From: Escherichia coli
GTDB lineage: Bacteria > Pseudomonadota > Gammaproteobacteria > Enterobacterales > Enterobacteriaceae
Reading direction: 5' to 3' (one strand)
DNA length: 64,000 nt
Assembly: GCF_016026235.1 (NCBI RefSeq)
Contig: NZ_CP065613.1
In this document: positions 12,848-63,998 of the stretch, piece after piece
How positions within the stretch are numbered: the first letter of the stretch is position 1
How the letters are laid out: every line of letters starts with the position of its first letter
The notes under the pieces: generated by a model
What the model was told of the DNA's origin: nothing
Databases searched by the model: none
Seen by the model: the letters and a program-made list of their open reading frames with translations, nothing else
Program-made: the position numbers and the translations under genes

Positions 12848-13335
12848 ACTGCCGTGAAGTGCGGCACCCCGTAGGTTGGATAAAGCGGTCACGCCGCATC
12901 CGACATCTAACGCCCGAGCCGGTTGCCTGATGCGACGCTGACGCGTGTTATCAGGCCTACACCGCTGTGAAGTGCTCCACCCCGTAGGTCGGATAAGGCG
13001 GTTACGCCGCATCCGACATCCAACGTCCGAGCCGGTTGCCTGATGCGACGCTGACGCGTCTTATCAGGCCTACACCGCTGTGAAGTGCTCCACCCCGTAG
13101 GTCGAATAAGTCGGTTACGCCGCATCCGACATCTAACACCCGAGCCGGTTGCCTGATGCGACGCTGACGCGTGTTATCAGGCCTACACCGCTGTGAAGTG
13201 CTCCACCCCGTAGGTCGGATAAGGCGGTTACGCCGCATCCGACATCCAACGTCCGAGCCGGTTGCCTGATGCGACGCTGGCGCGTCTTATCAGCATACGC
13301 CACATCCGGCATACCATGCCGGATGTGGCACATCA
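12848..13335. repeat. Tandem REP/BIME array, four units of about 110 bp plus a terminal 14-bp-stem palindrome at about 13299-13329
   Basis: Repeated gccgcatccgacatc...gcctgatgcgacgctg...cttatcaggcctaca units; ORF track shows the same MRRNRLIRPTGWSTSQRCRPD peptide in several overlapping ORFs. Confidence 0.9.
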
Positions 13336-21200: not shown

Positions 21201-21333
21201 ATTACGGAATGGCGAAATAAGCACCTAACATCAAGCAATAATAATTCAAGGTTAAAATCAATAACTTATTCTTAAGTATTTGACAGCACTGAATGTCAAA
21301 ACAAAACCTTCACTCGCAACTAGAATAACTCCC

Positions 21334-21426
21334 GCTATCATCATTAACTTTATTTATTACCGTCATTCATTTCTGAATGTCTGTTTACCCCTATTTCAAC
21401 CGGATGCCTCGCATCCGGTTTTTTTT
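21334..21426 (+). ncRNA. micF: MicF antisense sRNA (93 nt)
   Basis: Sequence gctatcatcattaactttatttattaccgtcattcatttctgaatgtctgtttacccctatttcaaccggatgcctcgcatccgg + U8 matches MicF incl. terminator; divergent from ompC. Confidence 0.93.
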
Positions 21427-25077: not shown

Positions 25078-28012
<2,935 letters not shown>

Positions 28013-28286
28013 AGGGGCGAAGCTCCGCCTCAGGTGACCGATGGAGTGTGGTTAAGGTAGCGGTAAAAGCGTGTTACCGCAATGTTCTGTCACCATTGCA
28101 ATAATGCGTATCGCTTAGAAACCATTGCCTTAACCAGGAAAGCCGGAGTAAATGGACAGTTCTCAGTACGAAAAATAAGAAATGACCAATCTGCCGACGC
28201 TTGTTAATGGTTATATCCTGGCGTCGGCAGATCGCCCAGCAGTCTTATCTGAAAAAAGAAAGAGCCAGGTTGTGTGAAGGGATGGA

Positions 28287-48860: not shown

Positions 48861-49041
48861 TATTGAGATGCCGGATGCGGCGTAAACGCCTTATCAGGCC
48901 TACGGCTCGGTTTGTAGGCCTGATTAGACGCGCCAGCGTCGCATCAGGCTCCGGGTGCCGGATGCAGCGTGAACGCCTTATCCGGCCTACGGCTCGGTTT
49001 GTAGGCCTGATTAGACGCGCCAGCGTCGCATCAGGCACAGG
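48861..49041. repeat. Two tandem REP/BIME units between nrdA and nrdB
   Basis: Direct repetition of gccggatgcggcgtaaacgccttatc(a/c)ggcctacggctcggtttgtaggcctgattagacgcgccagcgtcgcatcaggc. Confidence 0.85.
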
Positions 49042-51261: not shown

Positions 51262-52314
51262 TTAATGAATTTCTTTTGCCACTACTAGCGCGACACCGCT
51301 TTTACCCTTCATTTGCAGCGCATAGACTCCACCAGCCACTACCACTAATAGTGCGCCCAGCAGATAAATCATTCGGTAGCCAGTATGTGCAACCATCATC
51401 CCCATCACACAGGCTCCCAGCGCCAGGCCTGCATCCATCGCATTGAAGAAGAGGGAGTTTGCGACACCGATTTTATGCGGTTCCACTGAACTGATAATCT
51501 GCGTCTGAAAAACTGGCGTCACGGAACCATACCCGATACCAATCAACGCGCCAGAAACAACCATCATTATGCTTCCCTGGGTGTAGCCGAGAACCACCAG
51601 TCCTACCGTAAAGAACACAAGGCAAGGGTAAACCACATATTTCGGTCCTTTTTTGTCGCAGACATTGCCGGTAAAGGTACGGCAGATCATCAGGAAGATG
51701 GCGTAGCAAAGCAGGAAATTACTGGCCGCCGACATCAGGTTAAGTTCGCGAGCATAAAGCGCCAGAAAAGCAGAAACCCCGGCATACGAAAAGGTCATAA
51801 AAAAGGTGACCATCGCAAATGGCAACGCCGCGCGATCGAACATGGCGGCAAAGCCCATTTTCGGCGTTGAACCATCAGCATGGCTGATAACCGGCGGCAC
51901 TGTCATAATCAGCGACAGAATAATCCCCACCGCTGCCACGCCGGTGCATAGCCAGAAAGCCAGATTAAAGGCTTCCCAGCGCGCCATATTCAGACCAATC
52001 CACGGCCCGACCACCATTGCCAGCCCCATTGCCAAAGAGAAAAAACTGATGCCCTCCCCACGTCGGGAGGCCGGGATCAGCCGCGCGGAAATCGTTCCTT
52101 TTACCGTAGTGATAACCCCGAAGGTAATACCATGAAGCACCCTAATAAAAAGCAGTGATTCTATTGAGTGGCAAAAAGGATACAGCGCAGAGACCACCAA
52201 AAAGGCCAGAGAAGAGAGCACCAGAATAGTTTTATTCGAATATTTACCCACCCATTGCCCGGCAAAGGGTCGAATAACAATCGCCGCAATTAAAAATAAT
52301 GTCACCAGCAGACC
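51262..52314 (-). pseudogene. MFS transporter gene, C-terminal part (about codons 51-396), interrupted by IS4
   Basis: Multi-TM ORF opening with an ORF-caller GTG inside the target duplication; continues the reading frame of the fragment at 53740-53889 once the IS4 and one duplication copy are removed. Confidence 0.8.
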
Positions 52315-53739
52315 TAATGCCAGTCAGTTAAGCAACTGACTGGCTCTTTTTCGGGGCTGTGGGGTATTTCCAGGGCCTCTCCTTTACCACTCTCGGGAAG
52401 GCCCTTCCCCTTCTCGTCGGTAATTTCACAAGTTGTCCCATACTTGCAAGATCGCGCATCAGCTCCGGTATACGTCCCGGTGAAGCGCCCTGCAATGTCA
52501 TCAGCATTCTCATCACCATTCCGCATGATTCTGAGAAACTCAGTTGATTCGGCCAGTAACCTTTCAGATGTTCCGCCATTTTAATCATCTGATATCTCAC
52601 CAGATTATAAGCCAGTAAGACACCCCACAGCTCTTGCTCCACAAGCTCCGGCTTTTTACTTCTCAGCGTCAGCCTGCTCAGTTGCATCGTCTGTTTTATC
52701 TCCCTGTATCCCAGTTCGATTTCCCAGCGATGACTGTACAGATCCGCCATTTCTCCTCCGGGGAAGCGCATGGCGTCCGTCATCGACGTCAGCAGATGGC
52801 AGACTTTTCCTTTGCGCGTCACGGTCAGCAGGCGGGCTGTCACTTCATTTCCCAGTCCCGGCCACTTTTTTCGTGCCTGCGGGCTGGTTTTCAGCTTCAC
52901 CAGATGATCGCCTTTACCCAGTTTTCTGAGCTCTTCATATTGCGCTCCCTTTCTGAGAGGTATCATCCAGTGGCGGTGTTCTCCCGCCAGGCTCCAGGCA
53001 TTTAACAGTCCCAGTGAGTAATAACCTTTATCCATTAACGTCAGAGTGTTATCGCCGGTTTGTTCTATAAGTTGCTCAGCAAGCTCATTTTCGCTGTTCT
53101 TCATCGTGCCGAAGGCTGCAGCCGTCAGCAGATGGCTGGTCAGTTCCATCTGGCAGACCATTTTGACCTGCGGGTAGAGCGCCGGGTTCCCGGCATGTGT
53201 CTGGCGGGGAAGGCTGCATCGTTCTCTGGTGTATCCGGTGTGCGCCAGAACACACCATCGATGGCCAGCAGGGTCAGGCCGCACCAGTGCGGATGCGGCG
53301 TGGCGTTATGCCAGAGCTGCGCTGTTTTCGTGAACACGCGGCGGACAGCCTCACTTCCCAGGCGCTGGCGGGCCTGAATAACGGCACTGGGGGCAACGAA
53401 GGGGCGATTGCCCGGCAGCATGATGTCCAGGCGATTCACAATCTGGTGAAGAGGTTCTTTACGCTCAAGCGCCATGCCAACAATACACCAGACCATCATT
53501 TCGAGGGGAAGACGGCGCTTGCGTAGCGTTACAGTACCTGATTCGGCAAGGCAACGAGAGATGAGTTCGGGGTCGAGGTAATCCCCCAGAGAAGTCAGTG
53601 GGTTACGCAGAGAATCGTAACGGGATACCAGATCAAGAGCCTGTCCAATGTGCATAAAAAAATCCGGAAACAAGTGAGCGTTTCCGGATTCTTACACAGC
53701 CACTGGATCGGTCAACTGATCCTTAACTGATCGGCATTA
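52315..53739 (-). mobile_element. IS4 (1425 bp) with imperfect terminal inverted repeats taatgccagtcagttaag / cttaactgatcggcatta and 12-bp target duplication caccagcagacc
   Basis: Transposase translation recognisable as IS4 InsG; the duplication sits at 52303-52314 and 53740-53751; ends cross-checked against ORF boundaries. Confidence 0.9.
52328..53673 (-). pseudogene. insG: IS4 transposase split into two overlapping frames (177 aa + 318 aa), apparent frameshift near 53196-53200
   Basis: ORF track shows 53140-53673 and 52328-53284 on the same strand in different frames; together they span a single roughly 442-aa transposase. Confidence 0.7.
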
Positions 53740-53889
53740 CACCAGCAGACCAGCTTTATCAGGGGATGCATGGAGACGATCGGAGATATAAATAGGTAAT
53801 AAGGTCAGCAACACATAAAAGACGAAAAAGATAATAAAGCTAATAATGGTGATTGCCCAAAAATCTTTCGTCCATAATTTTTCTTTCAT
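53740..53889 (-). pseudogene. MFS transporter gene, N-terminal part (about 50 codons), separated from the rest by IS4
   Basis: MKEKLWTKDFWAITIISFIIFFVFYVLLTLLPIYISDRL... first TM helix of an MFS protein; frame terminates at the TAA created by the IS4 end. Confidence 0.75.
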
Positions 53890-54053
53890 ACTAAACGACC
53901 CGTTCAAATGGCGCACAAGGACACCGCTCAGCATCACAGGCTGAACCACTACAGGTGCGTCAAAATGTGATTTACTCGATAGAAATAGAGTATAAATGGA
54001 TGCACTCTATAAGAGAAATTAATCGTTTTAATCATATTAATTAGATATTACTA

Positions 54054-54932
54054 ATGACACTAACCCAAATCCACACCCTGCTCGCCGTACTGGATTATGG
54101 CGGCTTTACCGAAGCCAGTAAGCGCCTGTTTATGACGCAATCCGCCGTAAGCCAGGCCATTGCCACCCTGGAGCAAGAGCTTGGCGTAGAGATCCTGATC
54201 CGCGAGCGGCGAAAAGCACTGCAGCTGACTGACGCCGGCTCACGCATCGCAAGCCATCTGCGGGCGATTACCCGTGAAGTGAACGCTGTGAAAGAAATTG
54301 CCGAGCAGGAAAAACATAACCCGACCAGAACGCTGCGCATCGGCTGCTTTCCCAGCGCCTGCGCGTGTATTTTACCGGGTATTATTCGCTATTTTGAAAC
54401 TTATCATCCGCAGATAAAAATCATTCCTTACGAAGAGAACAGCAGTGAAATTATTGATTCGGTGCAAAACGAAACTATCGATGCCGGTTTTGTCCATTTT
54501 CCGGTAACCGGAATGTATTCCGTCCCGGTATATCAGGATAAATTTACCGTGGTGCTGCCAGATGCTCATCCCCTGGCAAAAAATAACGCTATATCGGTGG
54601 AAGAACTGGTGGGAGAACCGCTCATTATCAGTAAGGGGCGTTATGAATTAAGCATTATGGCGTTATTTAAGGAAAAGAATATTACGCCGGTCATTAAATA
54701 TGAATTTAACCATCCAGATACGGCAATAAGTTTTATTCGCCAGGGATTAGGAATTGCTCTGTTACCGGAGCTGACGCTGAAAGCCGTCGCCGGTGAGTTA
54801 TGCTCTGTCCCGCTGGAGCCGACGTTTTATCGGCAAATTTCATTGCTGGTCAAAGAGGCGCCGGTAGAAGGCAGCCCATTGTTTTTATTGCAAATGTGTA
54901 TGGAAACCCTGGTGGTCAAAGGCATATTGTGA
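54054..54932 (+). CDS. LysR-family transcriptional regulator (292 aa)
   Basis: N-terminal HTH (LTQIHTLLAVLDYGGFTEASKRLFMTQSAVSQAIATLEQELG) and C-terminal substrate-binding domain; divergent from the MFS gene. Confidence 0.85.
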   Translation: MTLTQIHTLLAVLDYGGFTEASKRLFMTQSAVSQAIATLEQELGVEILIRERRKALQLTDAGSRIASHLRAITREVNAVKEIAEQEKHNPTRTLRIGCFPSACACILPGIIRYFETYHPQIKIIPYEENSSEIIDSVQNETIDAGFVHFPVTGMYSVPVYQDKFTVVLPDAHPLAKNNAISVEELVGEPLIISKGRYELSIMALFKEKNITPVIKYEFNHPDTAISFIRQGLGIALLPELTLKAVAGELCSVPLEPTFYRQISLLVKEAPVEGSPLFLLQMCMETLVVKGIL

Positions 54933-57691: not shown

Positions 57692-61756
<4,065 letters not shown>

Positions 61757-61769
61757 ACTCCTTTCTGAT

Positions 61770-61801
61770 GCCCGGTAAGCATGTGGTTACCGGGCATTTT
61801 T
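61770..61801 (+). terminator. Rho-independent terminator of glpABC
   Basis: 9-bp stem gcccggtaa/ttaccgggc, 8-nt loop, followed by attttt; 14 bp after glpC stop; cross-checked against glpC stop position. Confidence 0.85.
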
Positions 61802-61948
61802 GCGTACACGATTCCATGCCCAATGTATGCGTTGCAACGCAGTGAAAATTCCTCTGAAAACGTCTCGCAAAGGCTGAAACTGGCAGATGTCAAAGGCCTG
61901 GGATAACCGTAATGTCGCGTCATCATAAATATCAGGTGACGGACAACC

Positions 61949-62920
61949 ATGACCGAATCAACAACCTCCTCCCCGCATGATGCGGTATTTAAAACCTTTA
62001 TGTTCACACCCGAAACCGCACGGGATTTTCTCGAAATACATTTACCAGAACCACTGCGCAAGCTTTGTAACCTGCAAACCTTACGCCTGGAACCCACCAG
62101 TTTTATTGAAAAAAGTTTACGCGCTTACTACTCGGATGTTTTGTGGTCCGTGGAAACCAGCGACGGTGACGGTTATATCTACTGCGTGATTGAACATCAA
62201 AGCTCTGCAGAAAAGAATATGGCTTTTCGGCTAATGCGCTATGCCACTGCCGCCATGCAGCGTCACCTGGACAAAGGCTATGACAGAGTCCCGCTGGTGG
62301 TGCCGTTGCTGTTTTATCATGGCGAAACCTCGCCTTACCCGTACTCACTCAACTGGCTGGATGAGTTTGACGATCCGCAACTTGCCCGGCAGTTGTACAC
62401 CGAAGCTTTTCCGTTGGTGGATATCACCATCGTACCTGACGATGAGATCATGCAACATCGGCGTATAGCTCTGCTGGAACTGATTCAAAAGCATATTCGC
62501 GACCGCGATTTAATCGGTATGGTCGACAGGATCACCACGCTTTTGGTTAGAGGCTTCACTAATGACAGCCAGCTACAAACACTGTTTAATTATCTGCTGC
62601 AATGCGGCGATACCTCCCGTTTCACCCGTTTTATTCAGGAGATTGCCGAACGTTCACCACTACAAAAGGAGAGATTAATGACTATTGCTGAACGGCTACG
62701 GCAGGAAGGGCATCAAATTGGCTGGCAGGAAGGTAAATTAGAAGGTTTGCAGCAAGGTAAATTGGAGGGTCTGCAGAAAGGTAAATTAGAAGGTTTGCAG
62801 GAAGGCATGCATGAGCAAGCCATTAAAATTGCCTTGCGCATGCTGGAGCAGGGCTTTGAACGTGAGATTGTGCTGGCGGCAACCCAACTCACTGATGCTG
62901 ATATTCCGAACTGTCATTAA
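61949..62920 (+). CDS. yfaD: Rpn-family (YhgA-like) PD-(D/E)XK nuclease, 323 aa, with internal in-frame SD+ATG at 62667-62680
   Basis: N-terminal region with D63...E82-x-Q84 nuclease-like motif ([25 protein letters not shown]); C-terminal GKLEGLQ repeats; K-12 synteny after glpC. Confidence 0.85.
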
Positions 62921-62929
62921 AAGGAGAGA

Positions 62930-63154
62930 TTGATGACTATTGCTGAACGGCTACGGCAGGAAGGACATCAAATTGGCTGGCAAGAAGGTAAATTAGTAGG
63001 TTTGCAGCAAGGTAAATTAGAAGGTTTGCAGGAAGGCATGCATGAACAAGCTATTAAAATTGCCTTGCGCATGCTGGAACAGGGCATTGATCGTGACCAG
63101 GTGCTCGCGGCCACCCAGCTAAGCGAAGCCGATCTGGCAGCGAATAACCACTAA
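62930..63154 (+). CDS. ypaA: Small ORF duplicating the C-terminal module of YfaD (74 aa)
   Basis: [21 protein letters not shown]...[15 protein letters not shown] nearly identical to YfaD residues 244-303, preceded by the same aaggagagatt SD-like sequence. Confidence 0.65.
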   Translation: MMTIAERLRQEGHQIGWQEGKLVGLQQGKLEGLQEGMHEQAIKIALRMLEQGIDRDQVLAATQLSEADLAANNH

Positions 63155-63194
63155 TTAACACAGGCCCACAGCCGATCCCCATGGGCCTTTGATA

Positions 63195-63998
63195 TCAATA
63201 ACTACCTTTTATGCGTGGCCCATTTTTGCCTGATTTAAACATCGCCAGTCGTTGATCCAGGGCATCGCTGTAGAGCATCGTGTCAACGCCAACAGCGACA
63301 AAGTTCGCTCCCCACGCCAAGCATTGCTGCGCCATATCAGGAGCCACAGCCAGAAAACCAGCCGCTTTACCCGCAGCACGGATCCGCCGAATGCTGGTTT
63401 CAATAATTCGCTGCACTTCCGGGTGCCCGGCGTTATCCGGGTAGCCCAACGACGCAGAAAGATCCGCAGGTCCAATAAACACGCCATCAATCCCTTCGAC
63501 GTCGAGGATCTCGTCCAGGTTATCCAGTGCCGTTTTACTTTCCACCTGCACTAACAGACAAAGCGAATCGTTGACTTGCGCCATGTAATTCTCAATGCGT
63601 CCCCAGCGCGCAGCCCGTGCCACACTGGCCCCAACACCACGTTCACCGTAGGGAGGATAGCGCGTGGCAGACACCACCTGACGTGCCTGATCGGCAGTAT
63701 CGACCATCGGGATCAGTAGAGTTTGCGCGCCAATATCCAGGACTTGTTTAATCAGCGACTTACTGCCATCCACCGGACGGATCACGGGTTGGCTGGCATA
63801 GGGCGCTACCGCCTGTAGCTGGTGATAAAGATCCTGAATGGTGTTTGGCGCGTGCTCCCCATCAATCAGCAACCAGTCATAACCGGAAGTGGCGGCAATT
63901 TCTGCCATATAGGCAGTTGTTGAGCTTAACCACAGACCAATTTGCACTTCGCCCTTGCGTAAACGTTCTTTAAAGGGATTGGTTAATAATGCGTTCAT
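63195..63998 (-). CDS. rhmA: 2-keto-3-deoxy-L-rhamnonate aldolase (267 aa)
   Basis: 267-aa HpcH/HpaI-family aldolase ORF ([23 protein letters not shown]...); K-12 synteny. Confidence 0.9.

Follow-up and report, generated by a model that had tools for sequence, protein, structure and literature searches.

The locus analyzed here is very probably the chromosomal rpnE (yfaD)–ypaA (rpnE_Ss) locus of Escherichia coli, which belongs to the published Rpn family of gene-within-a-gene toxin–antitoxin and phage defence systems. A short reading frame is nested in-frame at the 3′ end of rpnE and is present a second time directly downstream as the free-standing gene ypaA. This is a correct rediscovery, as the arrangement was already described between 2019 and 2023 for this very locus. 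The locus illustrates an antitoxin that is translated inside its own toxin gene and tuned by a variable helix repeat, a principle that is established experimentally for the Rpn family. No new biology is added to it, since rpnE–ypaA is named in the work that established the principle; what is new, and modest, is a population survey of copy and repeat numbers. All features are listed in Table 1 with their positions in the window, i.e., the whole stretch of 64,000 nucleotides that was analyzed.

Table 1. Features of the rpnE–ypaA locus (positions in the window).
Feature	Position	Strand	Basis or remark
rpnE (yfaD) CDS, product RpnE_L, 323 aa	61949..62920	+	ORF list; NF007418
PD-(D/E)XK nuclease / Transposase_31 domain, residues 8-209	61970..62575	+	Pfam PF04754, E 8.8e-88
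Internal Shine-Dalgarno sequence AAGGAGAG for in-frame start	62666..62673	+	Read from sequence; context match
RpnE_S ORF, Met244 to stop, 80 aa, nested in-frame in rpnE	62678..62920	+	Sequence
Repeats in the first helix of the RpnE C-terminal module: six units of 4 aa (three GKLEGLQx)	62735..62806	+	Tandem Repeats Finder
"E-type" tail and stop	62855..62920	+	In the sample, only in rpnE of two-copy loci
Second Shine-Dalgarno sequence AAGGAGAG	62921..62928	+	Directly after rpnE stop; left edge of duplicated unit
ypaA (rpnE_Ss), free-standing C-terminal module, 73 aa from ATG	62933..63154	+	ORF list; NF007418
Four 4-aa units in ypaA	62990..63037	+	Tandem Repeats Finder and classification script
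"Y-type" tail IDRDQVLAATQLSEADLAANNH and stop	63086..63154	+	Sequence comparison
GC-rich hairpin	63162..63188	.	Between convergent ypaA and yfaU (rhmA); probable shared terminator

Identification of the Locus and Published Background

The names RpnA to RpnE were introduced by Kingston et al. (2017), who reported nuclease-dependent toxicity, SOS induction and RecA-independent recombination for RpnA to RpnD (PMC5350276). Ribo-RET peaks at in-frame internal starts were subsequently found in all five rpn genes of K-12; in the same work the likeness of the internal product of rpnE, RpnE-C, to YpaA was noted, as was a raised synonymous-site conservation near the internal start of yfaD (Meydan et al., 2019; bioRxiv 10.1101/520783). 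Zhong et al. (2023, PNAS; PMC10400941) described the RpnS proteins as intragenically translated antitoxins of the RpnL nucleases, renamed ypaA as the second copy rpnE_Ss and detected RpnE_L, RpnE_S and YpaA in K-12 by SPA tagging and immunoblots. They further described that all RpnS and RpnSs proteins differ from strain to strain in how many 4-aa repeats they contain, and that deletion or fusion can remove the downstream copy. In the literature after 2023 we found nothing further on the locus beyond this paper and its commentary. The gene identities and the general model given in the earlier note, namely Rpn nucleases with antagonistic short isoforms, match these publications (bioRxiv 10.1101/520783; PMC10400941, main text).

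The flanking genes are glpC on one side and yfaU (rhmA) on the other, and both are also found in K-12. The gene identities and the gene context in the RefSeq and K-12 records agree with the window; the K-12 genes are b2244 (rpnE) and b4543 (ypaA). Of 5426 complete E. coli genomes, 5420 gave a match to the locus with its gene order glpC–rpnE–ypaA–yfaU, in each case chromosomal and never on a plasmid. At most 46 of the 5420 loci were at least 99% identical to that of the window, the closest being strain FDAARGOS_943 with 99.9%. The rpnE–ypaA tandem was also detected in contigs which encode a protein that its source attributes to E. fergusonii; there it carries five repeat units in rpnE and two in ypaA.

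Full-Length RpnE and Its Nuclease Domain

The earlier note had read yfaD as an ORF of 323 codons with a PD-(D/E)XK-like N-terminal region, and both statements hold (Table 1). The ORF ends with a TAA codon (62918-62920) and exceeds the cut-offs of the NCBIfam equivalog NF007418 (721.7 bits vs 583) and of TIGR01784 (178.7 bits vs 52.1). All residues required in RpnA, i.e., D11, D63, E82, Q84, R94 and the PDDE sequence at 163-166, are kept in RpnE at the same positions; the requirement was defined by mutagenesis of RpnA (PMC5350276). A search of PDB sequences with full-length RpnE gave no relevant match. Matches to FliH (NCBIfam) and Yae1_N (Pfam) lie on the repeat region and were treated as repeat-driven cross-hits, not as homology.

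By analogy with the other Rpn proteins RpnE_L may be toxic, and the rpnE system may defend against phages. Phage defence has been demonstrated for the plasmid-borne RpnP2 (Zhong et al., PMC10400941, main text). PADLOC 2.0 had no matching Rpn model and gave no relevant defence hit at the locus. For RpnE_L, RpnE_S and YpaA themselves, Zhong et al. describe no test of toxicity or antagonism in their main text (PMC10400941).

RpnE might instead be an inactive nuclease-like protein, and RpnE_S and YpaA, being HTH-like, might serve another role such as DNA binding or regulation. We regard this as rather improbable. It would agree with the behavior of K-12 RpnE, the one paralogue which was negative in all three assays, without toxicity, SOS or recombination effect upon overexpression (PMC5350276), with the RefSeq name "inactive recombination-promoting nuclease-like protein", with the similarity of RpnS to HTH motifs in HHpred (Zhong et al., PMC10400941, main text) and with the name "Rpn/YhgA-type helix-turn-helix domain-containing protein" which NCBI gives to some copies. 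Against it, the catalytic residues are all retained, and according to the main text of Zhong et al. the overexpression construct co-expressed RpnE_S, which confounds the inactivity result (PMC10400941). Moreover, RpnE of MG1655 carries two private substitutions, L107Q and P155L, which occur in none of 29 other loci compared and are absent from the RpnE of the window, so that the K-12 result may not represent the window allele. At these two positions the full-length homologs, which are only 10-27% identical, gave uninformative alignment columns.

RefSeq records carry the same ORF as rpnE with the product name "ISNCY family transposase", and a 13-nt imperfect inverted repeat flanks the unit (61886-61898 / 63184-63196). 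That rpnE is the transposase of an ISNCY-type insertion sequence is nevertheless hardly conceivable: the site is chromosomal and fixed in the 5420 genomes with a match, an inverted match of 12 in 13 positions is about the level expected by chance in 1.8 kb (own estimate), and the right arm of the repeat lies within the terminator hairpin. The main text of Zhong et al. likewise describes the rpn genes as devoid of terminal inverted repeats and target duplications (PMC10400941). A single fixed site and an inverted pair at chance level thus argue against membership in an insertion sequence, and the annotation is still wrong for both genes, with rpnE listed as a transposase and ypaA as a pseudogene fragment.

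The Internal Start and the RpnE_S Module

An internal Shine-Dalgarno sequence in front of the in-frame Met244, as noticed in the first inspection of the sequence, was verified. The motif AAGGAGAG precedes the ATG at 62678-62680 within the context AAAAGGAGAGATTAATG. The 30-nt context from the Shine-Dalgarno sequence to the start occurs exactly twice in the window and gave no such match in 100 shuffles of the window, which corroborates the claim that it is repeated downstream. In all 38 two-copy loci examined the context AAAAGGAGAGATT is kept.

The first 11 residues of RpnE_S are identical to those of the crystallized RpnA-S (PDB 7TH0). On the sequence level the 80-aa module aligns with 7TH0 in two stretches, residues 1-13 and 47-76, with the repeat units in between, and this match is weak (E 0.19). 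For structure prediction an alignment of 35 small homologs was used, which were obtained from a search of 1.84 billion proteins. The AlphaFold2 model of RpnE_S (pLDDT 89.8) comprises helices at residues 3-57, 62-69 and 73-75, and the 55-residue first helix is predicted to be continuous and to hold all six 4-aa units. The top Foldseek match of the model in the PDB was again RpnA-S (7TH0; probability 1.00, TM-score 0.71 normalized to the target, E only 0.083). The modeled fold of RpnE_S is hence most similar to RpnA-S and fits the published description of repeats which lengthen helix 1.

The Free-Standing Copy ypaA

The duplicated unit extends exactly from the Shine-Dalgarno sequence to the stop codon, and the SD-to-start context of the second copy covers positions 62921-62950. 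The product of ypaA matches positions 244-308 of NF007418 (E 1.6e-33), and proteins nearly identical to it carry the Pfam domain PF27070 (HTH_Rpn_C). A start at 62930 and a length of 74 codons had been proposed earlier and have to be corrected: the ATG of the 73-aa ORF lies at 62933, and position 62930 is an in-frame TTG one codon upstream. This TTG results from an A-to-G change, the start region being ATTGATG in the window and ATTAATG in K-12, where the ATG is the sole start.

In the window, 12 nt separate the rpnE stop from the ypaA ATG, and the same spacing was seen in all but one of the 38 two-copy loci. This short gap and the exact SD-to-stop unit leave no room for a promoter of its own; ypaA therefore most likely shares a transcript with RpnE_S, driven by the internal promoter that the literature describes. 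A strict scan of 61700-63300 found no sigma-70-like promoter, and a relaxed scan gave a single poor candidate (62424-62451). Because the internal promoter of rpnE was not located in the sequence by these scans, it was taken from the literature. The GC-rich hairpin between the convergent genes was flagged on the minus strand by the terminator scan; in the plus-strand fold it has -12.1 kcal/mol (z -2.6) and is followed by UUUGAUAU. To judge from these features, both convergent transcripts probably end at this hairpin. Two antisense ORFs (62713-62892 and 62968-63114) mirror the repeats and were rejected, as they are without support.

Outside the repeats the two copies share 95% identity over head and core, where five synonymous and no non-synonymous changes separate them. 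In the last 21-22 codons the identity drops to 62% with saturated dS, and the tail of YpaA differs from that of the resident RpnE in nine of 21 aligned positions and by an indel of one residue. The statement that the tail of yfaD is repeated "almost exactly" is consequently right for the first two thirds and wrong for the end, and the wording "duplicated and diverging" describes the pair correctly.

In PGAP annotation ypaA is "incomplete; missing N-terminus", and in the K-12 record it carries a pseudogene flag. We consider it highly improbable that ypaA is a decaying fragment of an rpn gene. Free-standing copies are intact ORFs in 45 of 46 cases; they span 57-89 aa in increments of four, and every change in length is by a multiple of 12 nt. 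The Shine-Dalgarno sequence and the 12-nt spacing are conserved, and the variant codons (15 synonymous vs seven non-synonymous, mean dN/dS about 0.22) indicate purifying selection. It was on the basis of the intact copies and the low dN/dS that ypaA was not regarded as a pseudogene, and its protein was moreover detected in K-12 (PMC10400941, main text).

Repeat Numbers and Tails Across E. coli Genomes

Tandem Repeats Finder reported a period of 24 nt for both genes, with 3.4 copies in rpnE (62725-62805) and 2.2 copies in ypaA (62985-63036), in line with the previously stated difference of one 24-bp GKLEGLQx unit (three vs two). Among strains the number changes in steps of 12 nt, corresponding to 4 aa. 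We therefore counted n as the number of 4-aa units from GWQEG to MHEQ, designated nE for rpnE and nY for ypaA. The state (nE,nY) of the window is (6,4).

A comparison of the locus across E. coli genomes, of the kind which the earlier note had suggested, revealed that repeat number and copy number both vary. A systematic sample of 60 genomes, with the copy state derived from spans and representatives verified by sequence, contained 34 two-copy loci, 25 single-copy loci and one disrupted locus; thus about 57% of the genomes are two-copy and 42% carry a single fused copy. Complete genomes were sampled because an exact-pattern scan of metagenome contigs yielded only 13 loci, many of them truncated. 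Two partial metagenome contigs were of the state (1,3) in one case and had eight units in rpnE and a very divergent second module in the other.

The 38 sequenced two-copy loci comprise 14 (nE,nY) pair types (Table 2). Unit counts of 0, 1, 2, 5, 6 and 8 were found in rpnE, with seven units in addition among single-copy alleles, and counts of 0-6 and 8 in ypaA. With these, natural alleles with 0-8 units and one pair of equal number are now identified.

Table 2. Pair types of repeat numbers in the sequenced two-copy loci.
nE	nY
0	1, 3, 5
1	4
2	5
5	0, 1, 2
6	2, 4, 5, 6
8	4, 6

The two copies differ in repeat number in 37 of the 38 two-copy loci, and 13 of the 14 pair types are unequal. A stricter rule, according to which the copies are never equal, is refuted by L059 (GCA_045758665.1), which is (6,6); its ypaA corresponds to that of the window plus one KLVGLQQG unit. 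Under a crude null of random combination, zero equal pairs among 12 types are expected about 11% of the time (own arithmetic, which ignores phylogeny). The deficit of equal pairs is accordingly not significant and no selection can be claimed from it. A synthetic (0,0) query, which covers one combination, was run against the 5426 complete genomes; none of the top-ranked matches spanned it at full length in one piece.

Two types of tail were distinguished. The E-type tail starts with FEREIVLA(A/T) and is always on rpnE in two-copy loci. The Y-type tail IDRDQVLAATQLSEADLAANNH is always on ypaA in two-copy loci and also ends all 11 single-copy rpnE alleles examined, including that of O157:H7. Such single-copy alleles with a ypaA-type tail are what a fusion between the two copies would leave.

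Proposed Mechanism and the Role of ypaA

RpnE_L consists of a PD-(D/E)XK nuclease domain and a small helical C-terminal module. Ribosomes very probably also initiate at the internal Shine-Dalgarno sequence and ATG of Met244, yielding the C-terminal module alone as RpnE_S, and ypaA is a tandem duplicate of this SD-to-stop unit, 12 nt downstream. According to the proposed mechanism, the free module would pair via its long first helix with the module of RpnE_L and keep the nuclease off, in analogy to RpnA, RpnB, RpnC and RpnP2, the only systems for which Zhong et al. show in their main text that RpnS binds or blocks its cognate RpnL (PMC10400941). By the same analogy RpnE_S may block RpnE_L. The number of 4-aa units in the first helix would decide which partners fit.

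The earlier note had proposed a toxic nuclease with two antagonist copies, one within the gene and one duplicated. As far as ypaA is concerned this is an extrapolation, and the closest precedent speaks against it: the RpnC toxin was blocked only by a partner with an equal number of repeats, and one extra 4-aa unit in just one of the partners abolished the antagonism (Zhong et al., PMC10400941, main text). YpaA is two units shorter than the resident module and has a diverged tail. It is therefore doubtful, judged by analogy, that ypaA acts on the resident RpnE_L, since its helix is two units shorter. On the whole the first interpretation of the locus is partly supported.

YpaA may rather be a non-cognate module, with another helix length and another tail, and not an antagonist of the resident nuclease; its only partners would be YpaA itself or other alleles of RpnE, or else it would represent a spare cassette. 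We hold this to be possible, with some reserve. The 6 vs 4 units of the window, the prevalence of unequal pairs in the sampled loci and the one-unit rule of RpnC (PMC10400941, main text) are consistent with it. So is the Y-type tail of all 11 single-copy alleles, as expected from a fusion of copies, which is also mentioned by Zhong et al. in the main text, and so is the mosaic nature of the two copies, with a head and core that differ by synonymous changes only and a tail with saturated dS. On the other hand, the (6,6) pair in L059 is equal, the deficit of equal pairs lacks significance under the crude null, and what holds for RpnC need not hold for RpnE.

In the cassette form of this reading, recombination with the intragenic copy would re-tune the specificity of RpnE_L and RpnE_S together. 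A further step would be that ypaA is deliberately kept mismatched to the resident module in repeat number and tail; instead of neutralizing the resident RpnE_L it would hold an alternative specificity in store, and recombination between the copies would switch the specificity of toxin and antitoxin jointly. We deem this unlikely; if true, it would give a defence nuclease a simple means of generating diversity.

Comparison with Known Systems

The rpnE–ypaA locus of K-12 MG1655 is orthologous to that of the window and has the flanks, the internal Shine-Dalgarno sequence and ATG, the 12-nt spacer and the two tail types in common with it. It differs in its repeat state, which is (0,1) as opposed to the six and four units of the window, in L107Q and P155L and in the start region of ypaA.

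With RpnA_L/RpnA_S (PDB 7TH0) RpnE shares the domain order, the first residues of the small protein, the helical fold, as predicted by the model, and the catalytic positions. Unlike the rpnE locus, RpnA_S as crystallized is without repeat units, and it lacks a second copy that stands free. For RpnA, antagonism, formation of a complex and nuclease activity have been demonstrated; for RpnE they would follow by analogy.

RpnC/RpnC_S/RpnC_Ss resembles the rpnE locus by its 4-aa repeat variation and by a downstream free-standing copy in some strains. However, RpnC is another paralogue, its downstream copy arose independently, and it is the only one in which the rule of matching repeats was tested (Zhong et al., PMC10400941, main text). 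Free-standing proteins with HTH_Rpn_C (PF27070) or DUF4351 (PF14261) have many representatives of 65-90 aa which start with MTIAE and contain (xxxG)n repeats. The ypaA-like proteins belong to the carriers of PF27070, but most of the small HTH_Rpn_C/DUF4351 proteins derive from other taxa.

In type II toxin–antitoxin systems a protein antitoxin neutralizes a protein toxin by direct binding, as published for RpnA (PMC10400941, main text). Unlike in these systems, the putative antitoxin frame of rpnE is nested in-frame within the toxin gene and accompanied by a separate duplicated copy. Zhong et al. drew in their main text an analogy to the TAEL repeats of HsdS in EcoR124I/EcoR124II, where the number of 4-aa units in a helix likewise sets specificity (PMC10400941). 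HsdS is a restriction specificity subunit, and its TAEL repeats set the spacing of the DNA site and not the choice of the partner as in the Rpn proteins.

Copy Number and Integrity of the rpnE–ypaA Locus

About 42% of the sampled complete genomes, O157:H7 among them, carry one gene only at the locus, and BL21 appears to be single-copy as judged by the alignment span. The sequences of 11 single-copy rpnE alleles were checked (including L023, L026, L028, L029, L037, and L039); all 11 end in the ypaA-type tail, which otherwise closes the free-standing downstream copy, and their numbers of the four-residue unit in helix 1 of the C-terminal module are 0, 1, 2, 7 or 8. Judged from these sequences, the combination of tail and unit numbers is consistent with a fusion between the two copies.

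Disruption of the locus is occasional. Strain UTME-10 (L031) bears an IS2 insertion within rpnE, and in strain CX21 (L038) a Tn7-like element (TnsA and transposase) adjoins a remnant of the locus in which the small ORF alone was kept. The glpC–rpnE–ypaA tandem is arranged as in E. coli, with five and two units, on two contigs (L076 and L077) of a protein which its source names E. fergusonii; yfaU is absent downstream of this tandem, its place being taken by a short IclR-like ORF and a MoCF_biosynth gene.

Aberrant free-standing copies were observed in two metagenome contigs. Contig SKEH01015850.1 (L009, 441-614) carries the very divergent module MTIAERLQEVGRRKGKREGQHAEALRIAQRMLDDGIARETVVKITGLTADEIAALAH in place of the free-standing copy, downstream of an rpnE with eight units; only the Shine-Dalgarno sequence and the first seven residues are shared with ypaA. 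The copy on the minus strand of contig OEQM01000798.1 (L013) comprises 140 aa and reads through past ...EQGI into an unrelated sequence of 80 residues, which may reflect a rearrangement or a chimeric assembly.

Annotation and the MG1655 Allele

RefSeq/PGAP lists rpnE under the product name ‘ISNCY family transposase’ and treats ypaA as a fragment of a pseudogene, with the remark ‘incomplete; missing N-terminus’ (window 61949-63154; loci L002 and L017-L036), and ypaA is likewise marked as a pseudogene in the K-12 record. These labels are contradicted by conservation and by the published detection of the protein.

Compared with the window (61949-62920), RpnE of K-12 MG1655 (L003) carries L107Q and P155L, both of which are absent from all 29 other loci compared. 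The sole functional test of RpnE, with the outcome ‘inactive’, was done on the K-12 allele; distant homologues gave no decision on the weight of the two substitutions.

Repeats and Further Features of the Window

The arms of an imperfect inverted repeat lie on either side of the whole rpnE–ypaA unit (Table). Over 1.8 kb, a pair of this kind is about what is expected by chance, and its right arm shares sequence with the probable terminator hairpin. There is no evidence for the two antisense ORFs as genes, which are mirror images of the coding repeats, and the FliH (NCBIfam) and Yae1_N (Pfam) matches on the same stretch look repeat-driven.

Table. Coordinates of repeats, ORFs and RNA matches in the window.
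Feature	Position	Strand	Remarks
naRNA4/CssrE	12987-13070	+	Rfam gathering-level match
naRNA4/CssrE	13213-13295	+	Rfam gathering-level match
MicF sRNA	21333-21426	+	Rfam gathering-level match
naRNA4/CssrE	25087-25163	-	Rfam gathering-level match
949-aa ORF	25163-28012	-	
258-aa ORF	28287-29063	-	~270 nt beyond 949-aa ORF
naRNA4/CssrE	48917-48987	-	Rfam gathering-level match
MFS-transporter ORF	51262-52305	-	starts at profile position 63; adjoins IS4-family fragment
IS4-family transposase fragment	52328-53284	-	profile positions 133-332 of 332
LysR-type regulator	54054-54932	+	intact; within region 51262-54932
13-nt imperfect inverted repeat	61886-61898 / 63184-63196		GATGTCAAAGGCC / GGCCTTTGATATC
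Antisense ORF	62713-62892	-	59 aa; ...CKPSNLP... repeats
Antisense ORF	62968-63114	-	48 aa; ...CKPSNLP... repeats

The window contains no tRNA genes, and its four naRNA4/CssrE matches are taken to be REP-like elements. The 949-aa and 258-aa ORFs may be rcsC and yfaP, as suggested by the K-12 gene order, in which the ato operon sits between these two genes; if so, the operon would be absent from the region 25163-29063. The LysR-type regulator agrees over its last 65 residues with the model NF007272, which is 68 aa long and named ‘hypothetical protein’.
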